In this document: in pieces, positions 9,355-9,939 of the stretch
Position numbering within the stretch: position 1 is the first letter of the stretch
Layout: each line of letters starts with the position of its first letter
Source of the DNA: a phage
DNA length: 64,000 bases
Sequence record: PV467749.1
Reading direction: 5' to 3' (one strand)
Made by a program: the position numbers and the translations under genes
Notes under the pieces: generated by a model
What the model was told of the DNA's origin: nothing
The model's database searches: none
What the model saw: the letters and a program-made list of their open reading frames with translations, nothing else

Positions 9355-9939
9355 TTATCGTGTTACCTTACTTGCTGCCACATCACGCTTTTTATAGTAC
9401 TGATTCCAGATATTGCAGGTTAAACCGTAATCAAGTACTTTAATAAGGCCATTACGATCCTGGCCGATATTCTGTTTTCTGATATCTCTTATCGTTAGTG
9501 TTGATAATGTATCATCGACGTGTTGTAGTGCATCAGCAAAGCGGTGCTGGCGTTCGATTGCATTACGTTTAATATTGTACTTTAATTCATTGCACGCGTT
9601 TACGTGCTTCACACTACCTTTGCTTGCAGTACTCAACCGATCCATAACGATAAACATATTATCAGGATCGCATAAATGCATATGCACCTTTGCAAAGTAC
9701 TGTTTCAACTGAGGGCGGTCATAGTCTAAAAAATTCCATACCTTACATTCAGTTTCATTTTGTTCTACACCCGCATCACAATTCGCGACCTTAATCACTA
9801 ACCGATCATTTAAAGCGAAAACTATACGGGAAGAACCAGCACCGATGATCTCCAGGCCAGCTAACCGACAAGCTGAAAGGATCTCTTTGTTGGTTTCCAT
9901 TTCTGACAGTGTACGGATGAATTTAGTATAATTACGCAT
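9355..9939 (-). CDS. Protein-kinase-like protein (motif-level)
   Basis: Gly-rich loop IIGAGSSRIVF, VIKVA lysine, catalytic-loop-like RDIRKQN, DFG-like LDYG; trimmed to MRNYTKF behind AAGGAGAA RBS. Confidence 0.45.
   Translation of the reverse strand: MRNYTKFIRTLSEMETNKEILSACRLAGLEIIGAGSSRIVFALNDRLVIKVANCDAGVEQNETECKVWNFLDYDRPQLKQYFAKVHMHLCDPDNMFIVMDRLSTASKGSVKHVNACNELKYNIKRNAIERQHRFADALQHVDDTLSTLTIRDIRKQNIGQDRNGLIKVLDYGLTCNIWNQYYKKRDVAASKVTR

Follow-up and report, generated by a model that had tools for sequence, protein, structure and literature searches.

A predicted C-lobe-truncated protein-kinase-like protein of an Asteriusvirus jumbo coliphage

The kinase of phage T7 phosphorylates most host proteins and disarms many bacterial defense systems, and the work that described this left open whether other phage kinases act likewise (PMC13645617). 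Kinase domains of polyvalent proteins, reported mainly from (pro)phages of Verrucomicrobia-Chlamydia and Bacteroidetes, have lost their C-terminal subdomain while keeping the active-site residues, and a T7-kinase-like action on the host has been predicted for them (PMC5512222). Here we analyze a protein-kinase-like gene of 194 codons at positions 9355-9939, minus strand, in a 64,000-nt stretch of the sequence record PV467749.1, which belongs to an Asteriusvirus jumbo coliphage; this whole stretch is the window referred to throughout. We give a probability of about 0.55 to the reading that the gene encodes an active early protein kinase, constitutively open and of low selectivity, whose targets are proteins of the host or the phage.

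The gene has been noticed before. Its ortholog in phage Sharanji, gp063 (WNN14351.1), receives one sentence in the paper on that phage, as "another protein kinase ... which function is unknown" (PMC11895373). Ortholog records are labeled 'protein kinase domain-containing protein', 'putative protein kinase', 'PRP4', 'PknA' or hypothetical, and since several carry such kinase labels, the kinase-like nature of the product is already in the databases. What is new is that it represents an uncharacterized, separate family among the C-lobe-truncated phage kinases.

The gene, its predicted fold and its true end

The 194-residue gene is real and lies on the minus strand. Its open reading frame closes with a stop codon after 194 residues, the ATG start codon occupies 9937-9939, and a ribosome-binding site read from the sequence (AAGGAG, 9948-9953, minus strand) precedes it with an 8-nt spacer, matching in place a ribosome-binding site annotated in phage UE-S1. 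The start methionine is common to all 13 close homologs of the protein; a longer, 213-residue version with a TTG start was rejected as read-through of the upstream promoter region. The surroundings (9000-10300) are 99.7% identical to UE-S1 and 93-97% identical to ph0011, fEgEco12, vB_Ec-M-J, G17, Sharanji, PBECO4, 121Q and others, and an orthologous coding sequence is annotated at matching coordinates in ph0011, Sharanji, UE-S1 and vB_Ec-M-J. Against four orthologs the ratio of nonsynonymous to synonymous change (pN/pS) is 0-0.07, with 0-2 nonsynonymous and 0-15 synonymous differences, and the gene is under strong purifying selection. No paralog of it occurs in the 64-kb window.

The protein matches the PHROG profile phrog_4301 (E 4.3e-41, residues 3-188), and all 109 members of a broad alignment match this PHROG and no other. 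Conservation was measured in two alignments, of 109 and 112 sequences, most members of which are 20-45% identical to the window protein. The original prediction, made from the sequence alone, was of a small protein-kinase-like gene with a Gly-rich loop, VIKVA, RDIRKQN and LDYG in canonical order and about 20 residues beyond the last of these; translation places all four motifs and leaves 22 residues after G172. The Gly-rich loop IIGAGSSRIVF (residues 31-41; 9817-9849, minus strand, as are all motif coordinates here) forms a beta1-turn-beta2 hairpin in the structural model described below. Its family version is GxGSSRxV[FY], in which an invariant R38 replaces the canonical third Gly (G35 91-96%, S36 94-100%, R38 100%). 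The beta3 strand VIKVA (residues 48-52; 9784-9798; strand 47-52 in the model) carries Lys50, which is present in 100% of both the 109 and the 112 sequences and is predicted to be the equivalent of the ATP-anchoring lysine.

An element that was missing from the original list, QNETE (residues 60-64; 9748-9762), emerges from conservation and falls within helix alphaC, residues 55-73 of the model. Q60 and E64 are invariant and N61 is kept in 96-99%; from the canonical kinase layout, E64 would be the salt-bridge partner of K50. The QN pair, one turn ahead of the helix-C Glu, is family-specific, as is the Arg of the Gly-rich loop. In the catalytic loop RDIRKQN (residues 151-157; 9469-9489), D152 and N157 are the predicted equivalents of the catalytic base and the metal-binding Asn. 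D152 is conserved in 97-99% of the family, position 157 is always polar (N ~40%, H 18-28%, S/T ~20-32%, Q 7-11%), and the Lys two residues past the catalytic Asp is poorly conserved. The DFG equivalent, LDYG (residues 169-172; 9424-9435), contains D170 and G172, both conserved in 98-99%, with Y or F at the middle position of DYG in 83-94%. With two further near-invariant positions, G57 (99%) and G159 (99-100%), the family signature becomes GxGSSRxV[FY] ... V[LI]K[IVL]A ... G..QN..E ... D-x4-[NHSTQ]-x-G ... D[YF]G.

Could these motifs resemble those of kinases by chance, in a protein that is not kinase-like? Domain searches with the single sequence lean that way. The Pfam Pkinase match (PF00069; 17.2 bits, E 0.0035) does not reach the gathering cut-off of 31.7 bits, an NCBIfam search with the 194-residue protein gave no match, and PADLOC gave weak matches to the PD-T4-6 kinase models (E ~1e-3). 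The structural model built from the 13 close homologs was also uninformative, with a predicted local distance difference test (pLDDT) score of 50. In Pfam the family as a whole registers faintly: among the 109 members at E<0.01, Pkinase matched only 5, ABC1 3 (best E 6e-4) and PK_Tyr_Ser-Thr 1, no member matched YrbL (PF10707), Kdo/WaaP (PF06293), RIO1 (PF01163) or APH (PF01636), and the precomputed Pfam domains of alignment members comprise a single AceK match. An affinity to YrbL, which has a similar GxGxxRxxY loop, was dropped on the absence of PF10707 from all 109.

Profile and structure comparisons give a different answer, and chance resemblance is effectively refuted by a kinase topology modeled with high confidence, by hundreds of kinase matches in fold searches, by in-register profile alignments and by catalytic residues that are near-invariant across a very divergent family. 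Profile searches of the PDB at E<=1 returned 256 chains with a 13-homolog profile and 600 with a 109-homolog profile, and nearly all of the 60 chains listed for each search are protein kinases. The best match, MKK4 (E ~1e-4), keeps its register over the whole span between Gly-rich loop and DFG-like motif, and the alignments to MKK4 and MKK7 share their catalytic-loop register with an alignment to PKA. In the latter (hhalign, 112-sequence profile, E 1e-4), the aligned segment IRDI-RKQNIGQDRNGLIKVLDYG pairs D152, N157 and D170 with D166, N171 and D184 of PKA, with D-to-N and N-to-D spacings of 5 and 13 residues that equal those of PKA; the PKA sequence served as a numbering reference only.

Deepening the alignment, by an exhaustive profile search and then two word-indexed searches, to 112 diverse sequences yielded an AlphaFold model with pLDDT 94.6 and a predicted template modeling score of 0.90. 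It begins with two N-terminal helices, beta1 (30-35), beta2 (38-42), beta3 (47-52) and helix C (55-73), continues through beta4/5 (to residue 100), helix D (109-120), helix E (130-145) and the catalytic loop, and ends with beta7 (158-160), beta8 (166-168), DYG and one last helix (175-182). Foldseek matched it in the PDB to APH(2''), Legionella Lpg2603, OSR1, MEK1 and RIOK2, and nearly every match listed is a kinase-like fold or a SAICAR synthase; RIOK2 and Rio2 are both among the hundreds of kinases found in the fold searches. Because Foldseek agrees, yet at only E ~3e-4 and a template modeling (TM) score of ~0.43, the fold assignment is secure while no solved structure is close. Both the bilobal core of the protein-kinase-like superfamily (five-stranded N-lobe sheet, helix C, hinge, helices D/E, catalytic and Mg-binding loops) and its defining residues (beta3 Lys, helix-C Glu, catalytic Asp, DFG-type Asp) are present in the model and conserved in the family, respectively. 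The 194-residue protein is thus predicted to have a protein-kinase-like fold with all catalytic residues kept. A structure prediction without a kinase fold, or motifs out of line with catalytic positions, had been named as the outcome that would speak against the original prediction; the model has kinase topology, with the motifs at the catalytic positions of PKA. Reading frame, ribosome-binding site, purifying selection and fold all bear that prediction out, as does its call of a minimal kinase-like fold, the model having neither an activation segment nor helices F-I.

In place of those elements stands a C-terminal tail of 22 residues (9358-9423, minus strand), modeled as the helix 175-182 and a basic end. 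A kinase that stops so soon might be one half of a split gene with its C-lobe encoded downstream, and this was ruled out by the hairpin and promoter that intervene, by the shared ends of the homologs and by the abutting of tandem copies. All homologs stop ~20-25 residues past DYG. Relatives with two to four tandem copies per polypeptide repeat a unit of ~190 residues, with the next copy beginning about 10-20 residues past the helix that follows DYG; two such proteins are P0021, with copies at 13-240, 256-474 and 483-692, and P0023, with four. The model is confident through the final helix. The truncation is genuine, because the homologs end in common, a hairpin and promoter follow, the tandem copies are spaced accordingly and the last helix is modeled with confidence. 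The end of the protein is therefore a true domain boundary, and the domain lacks an activation segment, an APE motif and helices F-I, which places it among the smallest kinase-fold domains with every catalytic residue kept.

Predicted activity and what it would require

The C-lobe-truncated protein is very probably an active ATP-dependent phosphotransferase. In the mechanism that we propose, the GxGSSR loop and the hinge would have ATP between them, with its alpha and beta phosphates anchored by K50, which E64 of helix C would position; Mg2+ would be bound by N157 and by D170 of DYG; and D152 would be the catalytic base. S36, R38, Q60 and N61 probably touch the gamma-phosphate or the substrate, and may stand in for the activation segment, which is absent, and for the Lys after the catalytic Asp, which is poorly conserved. 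Without an activation loop and helices F-I, the active site would be open, the activity constitutive and the intrinsic selectivity low, as in T7 kinase. Host RNA polymerase would transcribe the gene very early in infection, and the kinase would then phosphorylate host, and possibly phage, proteins for host takeover or counter-defense. For the window protein, the analysis shows that the gene is real, what fold it has, which residues are conserved, that it is truncated and where in the genome it lies; that it is catalytically active, is made early, acts on proteins and has the role proposed here is what we infer.

Several observations weigh against this picture. SteC loses its activity when truncated directly behind its DFG-like motif, from which it follows that helix F can be essential, and this is the main caution on activity. 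The metal-binding Asn varies as N, H, S, T or Q over the wider family. phrog_4301 is labeled 'unknown function' in PHROGs and has no Pfam model, and literature searches found no experimental work on the gene or its family. Promoter and terminator calls in the window are pattern matches alone. Three members of the family are tied to RNA-repair genes. The proteins of the early arrays contain 16-17% Ser+Thr+Tyr, unlike T7-kinase phage genomes, which are depleted in these residues; typical E. coli proteins contain ~14%, and depletion as a signature of a promiscuous kinase was looked for in these arrays and not seen.

The loss of the substrate-docking lobe also admits a reading in which the protein is an ATP-binding or ATP-hydrolyzing switch, or a pseudokinase-like scaffold, and would regulate or sequester some partner, from host or phage, without passing phosphate to a substrate. 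Other very small kinase-fold proteins provide a precedent, Bud32 (of KEOPS) and the Rio kinases working chiefly as ATPases, and RIOK2 and Rio2 are among the fold matches of the window protein. SteC requires helix F, and OspG reportedly requires a binding partner for its activity (Pruneda 2014). We nevertheless hold such a switch or scaffold to be improbable. The full K-E-D-D set is retained; D152, the phosphotransfer base, tends to vanish in pure scaffolds and is here conserved in nearly the whole family; and T7 kinase, of the same truncated layout, is hyperactive.

Terminal repeat, promoters and hairpins

The expectation of early expression for the putative kinase comes from its surroundings. 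It belongs to a long array of very small genes, almost all of them sharing its strand, and repeated cassettes break the array up, each made of a consensus sigma-70 promoter with a GC hairpin behind it; a consensus scan found seven perfect TTGACA-N16/17-TATAAT sites on the minus strand within 7 kb. Directly upstream of the kinase-like gene is a weak sigma-70-like candidate promoter (TTGCCA-N17-TAATAT, 9968-9996, minus strand; 9/12 consensus matches), and a stronger one (TTGACA-N17-TACTAT, 10242-10270, minus strand; 10/12) stands ahead of a gene of 80 codons at 9971-10213. Between the stronger promoter and the kinase-like gene the terminator scan found no terminator-like site, and the layout suggests that this promoter probably co-transcribes the kinase-like gene with its 80-codon neighbor.

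On the other side, 12 nt past the stop codon, the scan places a putative terminator with a 12-bp hairpin, AAAGGGATTGACTCCGGTCAGTCCCTTT (9316-9343, minus strand). The hairpin includes the -35 box of the following gene's promoter (9308-9336), and a 'terminator' is annotated at the equivalent place in UE-S1. It belongs to a 93-nt repeat present in three copies spaced ~2.8-3.3 kb apart (6507-6599, 9264-9356 and 12529-12621), the second of which is directly 3' of the kinase-like gene. Each copy holds the same 12-bp hairpin, with a stem that includes the -35 box of a TTGACT-N17-TATTAT promoter with an extended -10, and from this arrangement the repeat looks like an overlapping terminator and promoter unit.

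Copies of the intergenic cassette stand on the minus strand at 6808-6885, 8334-8411, 8828-8905, 11680-11757, 11949-12026 and 13239-13316, and a related family of seven copies includes 7802-7874 and 9153-9225. Their order is a perfect or near-perfect TTGACA-N16-TATAAT, a GC-rich hairpin (GGGGAGAA...TTCTCCCC) and the ribosome-binding site of the next small gene, so that the cassette hairpin sits downstream of the promoter, in the 5' leader. Open reading frames whose listed N-termini read 'MFYIERGKWF...' or 'MTVLKCFST..YQHG..' are read-through of these promoter/hairpin cassettes and have no real starts there; such frames are listed at 7519-7836, 8909-9265, 9971-10270 and 10271-10546 (minus strand), and the annotated orthologs start further in.

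The array is part of what appears to be a long terminal repeat. In vB_Ec-M-J the ortholog (16,690-17,274) lies inside an annotated direct terminal repeat of 21,525 bp and is transcribed inward from the left end. Correspondence with that repeat (1-21,525 in vB_Ec-M-J) makes ~5100-26600 of the window a direct terminal repeat of ~21 kb, and the window therefore crosses a repeat/unique junction on both sides. Records that hold both terminal repeats have two copies of the kinase-like gene, and the homolog of Klebsiella phage Muenster is inside a predicted terminal repeat. The repeat of fEgEco12, 20,993 bp, was confirmed by restriction digests, and the paper on that phage considers the 8.3 kb repeat reported for UE-S1, the closest relative, to be probably mis-assigned. 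In PA5oct, a related phage reliant on the RNA polymerase of its host, most genes of the terminal repeat show high early transcription (PMC7318152). Because the kinase-like gene is located in the ~21 kb repeat, amid an array of tiny genes served by sigma-70 promoters, we infer on good grounds that in this phage, too, its expression would be early and driven by the host polymerase.

Other arrays of paralogs occupy the window. On the minus strand at 146-5005, fifteen tandem paralogous tiny genes of ~65-91 codons, with products 27-54% identical, run head to tail with overlapping stop and start codons, and smaller sets of paralogous genes of ~60-70 codons occur at 25876-27067 and 28488-29632. On the plus strand, sixteen tandem paralogous genes of ~357-449 codons (30570-50825) encode products that are 23-70% mutually identical and unusually rich in Ser, Thr and Tyr (23-29%); Sharanji gp114, in the matching array, is annotated as an RCC1-repeat protein.

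The wider family and its relation to known kinases

The family is large. The exhaustive profile search returned 2,071 representatives of clusters at 50% identity at E<=1e-3, 245 of them at E<=1e-10. Among isolated phages, tblastn found homologs in 60 records, named as Escherichia, Salmonella, Klebsiella, Erwinia, Yersinia and Pectobacterium phages and one Xanthomonas phage; among the matches listed, all are phages of 310-386 kb. A viral structure library added homologs in RP12, Lacusarx and others. The closest relative outside the Asteriusviruses, the metagenomic protein P0007 (52% identical), is encoded in a tiny-gene array like that of the window gene. Immediately upstream of it is a gene for a ParE-like toxin domain (PF24732; contig L013, 4745-4996), with the kinase homolog starting 4 nt on.

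Further afield the contexts change. On three independent contigs the homolog lies between a T4 gp13-like neck gene or a capsid gene and the sheath gene, in two copies on two of the three. One metagenomic member adjoins an ART-PolyVal gene and another adjoins DNA methyltransferases. A tape-measure/minor-tail protein of 3,248 residues (PhageMin_Tail, E 6e-30) contains two kinase-like copies. Taken together, such architectures point to an effector module that may be expressed first by some phages and carried in the virion by others.

RNA repair is another recurrent association. P0196 is directly upstream of genes for a Pnk-like protein (AAA_33/tRNA_lig_CPD), a NUDIX protein, a T4 Rnl1-type RNA ligase, an HD_4 protein and a DNA ligase; P0235 is three genes from an AAA_33/KTI12-type kinase and ~4.4 kb from RtcB; and P0121, a fusion of 2,130 residues, joins four kinase-like copies to a 2H phosphoesterase, a poly(A)-polymerase/CCA-type nucleotidyltransferase and a weak GNAT match. 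These links would fit an active kinase of a non-protein substrate, whether RNA or tRNA (in end-healing or at the 2'-OH, as archaeal ArkI does), nucleotides or small molecules. The model, in which the lobe that docks protein substrates is missing, is consistent with such a role, and APH, SAICAR synthetase and ArkI are among the fold matches. We regard it as unlikely for the window protein. Neither the window gene nor that of P0007 has an RNA-repair gene nearby, both being in arrays of tiny genes; only 2 of 11 distinct contexts sampled are linked to RNA repair, plus the one fusion; and unrelated functions lie side by side in jumbo-phage genomes and in polyvalent proteins. The catalytic loop fits protein kinases best (PKA, E 1e-4; MKK4, E 1e-4). 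APH enzymes carry a C-terminal substrate-binding helical domain, and this domain, too, is absent from the window protein.

What gives the gene its value is that its family is large and unexplored and that it is tractable in coliphages, more than any surprise. The phage kinase family of the window gene is distinct from, and much larger than, that of T7 kinase, its relatives in other phages appear to be virion-delivered, and the gene itself occupies the terminal repeat in coliphages for which E. coli K-12 is a host, among them Sharanji. With fold, catalytic residues and true domain boundary now defined, it makes a good test case. If active, the protein would show a kinase working without helix F and an activation segment, and would be a second anti-host kinase in jumbo phages considered for therapy. 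If it is only what its annotation says, it is an ordinary and correctly flagged gene.

Canonical kinases are the natural reference for the predicted fold. PKA and MKK4/7, the best sequence-level matches of the family profile, share with the window protein the N-lobe, the helix-C Glu, the beta3 Lys, D-x4-N and the DFG-type Asp, whereas the third loop Gly, the HRD His/Arg, the activation segment, APE and helices F-I of canonical PF00069 domains are all missing from it.

Bacterial effectors with depleted C-lobes offer a likeness in size and concept. OspG has 196 residues, and both it and SteC are reduced in the C-lobe. The SteC N-lobe (PDB 8jbi) matches the family profile weakly (E 0.005), and hhalign with OspG, which is not among the top fold matches, aligned the Gly-rich loop alone (E 0.029, probability 1.7%). 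The truncation is less severe in these proteins. The minimal active domain of SteC reaches ~65 residues past DGD and OspG extends ~40 past DFR, against 22 in the window protein, and OspG/NleH and SteC, which are effectors that target eukaryotes, retain the helix F region. A relationship to OspG/NleH/SteC was rejected, since the similarity is confined to the N-lobe, where it is weak, or to the Gly-rich loop.

Polyvalent-protein kinases share several traits with the window family: loss of the C-lobe, retention of active-site residues, and both stand-alone and multidomain versions. The multidomain settings of the window family include giant proteins with GNAT, 2H and nucleotidyltransferase domains and the tape-measure fusion, and one member has the ART-PolyVal neighbor. 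The diagnostic residues differ. The Glu before strand 2 is absent from the window family (S36-S37-R38 at this place), as are the conserved Gln in the last N-lobe strand (98-100 being V/I-M-E/D) and the conserved catalytic His with its His-to-Asp insert (position 151 is G/A, followed directly by D). Membership among the polyvalent-protein kinases was rejected on these absences, a separation that is drawn from the published description only.

T7 kinase was considered as a relative because the same phages carry a homolog of it. In Asteriusviruses this is Sharanji gp144 (WNN14432.1; 224 residues, phrog_15752, motif TDPL; locus L004, 21183-21857), which is absent from the 64-kb window and also ends ~20 residues past its DFG-like motif. 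The jumbophage homologs of T7 kinase in G17 and Munch carry a DPx motif (PMC13645617), and because of this motif they are of the gp144 type and do not correspond to the window gene. T7 kinase (gp0.7) itself has the same truncated layout as the window protein, with DPV at 213-215 and a kinase domain that ends ~25 residues on, and T7-type kinases are among the structural neighbors of the window protein in the viral library (TM 0.52-0.58, E ~1e-5). T7 gene 0.7 is a class I early gene, and both it and the window gene, the latter by its presumed timing, sit in an early region close to a genome end, under host-type promoters. In sequence the two part ways. Alignments of the window family to T7-type kinases by hhalign are in register, weak and not significant (E 0.25 and 0.027); T7 kinase and gp144 match phrog_2828, phrog_15752 and phrog_18305, whereas the window protein matches phrog_4301 only; the T7 motif is DPV/DPx and that of the window protein DYG; and the T7 loop reads GNGHFSAAY without a QNxxE, whereas the window family has GxGSSR with an invariant Arg and QNxxE in helix C. 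T7 kinase has a C-terminal shut-off/DNA-binding domain, of which the window protein has no counterpart. Membership in the T7 kinase family was rejected on the differing PHROGs, the non-significant hhalign scores and DYG in place of DPV, and a relation is left at the superfamily level at most. With gp144 in the same genomes as gp063, Asteriusviruses therefore encode two unrelated minimal kinases.

A broader proposal, which we put forward tentatively and think more doubtful than probable, is that phrog_4301 is a large, unrecognized clade of autonomous first-strike kinase modules of ~190 residues that phosphorylate components of host defense or of the RNA-damage response with low selectivity. Delivery may be through early genes in terminal repeats, as with the window gene, expressed from whatever DNA enters the cell first, or in the virion, by way of tape-measure fusions, genes between neck and sheath, and two- to fourfold tandem arrays. 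If this were true, phrog_4301 would parallel the anti-defense strategy of T7 kinase, as a second system that is independent of it and more widespread.

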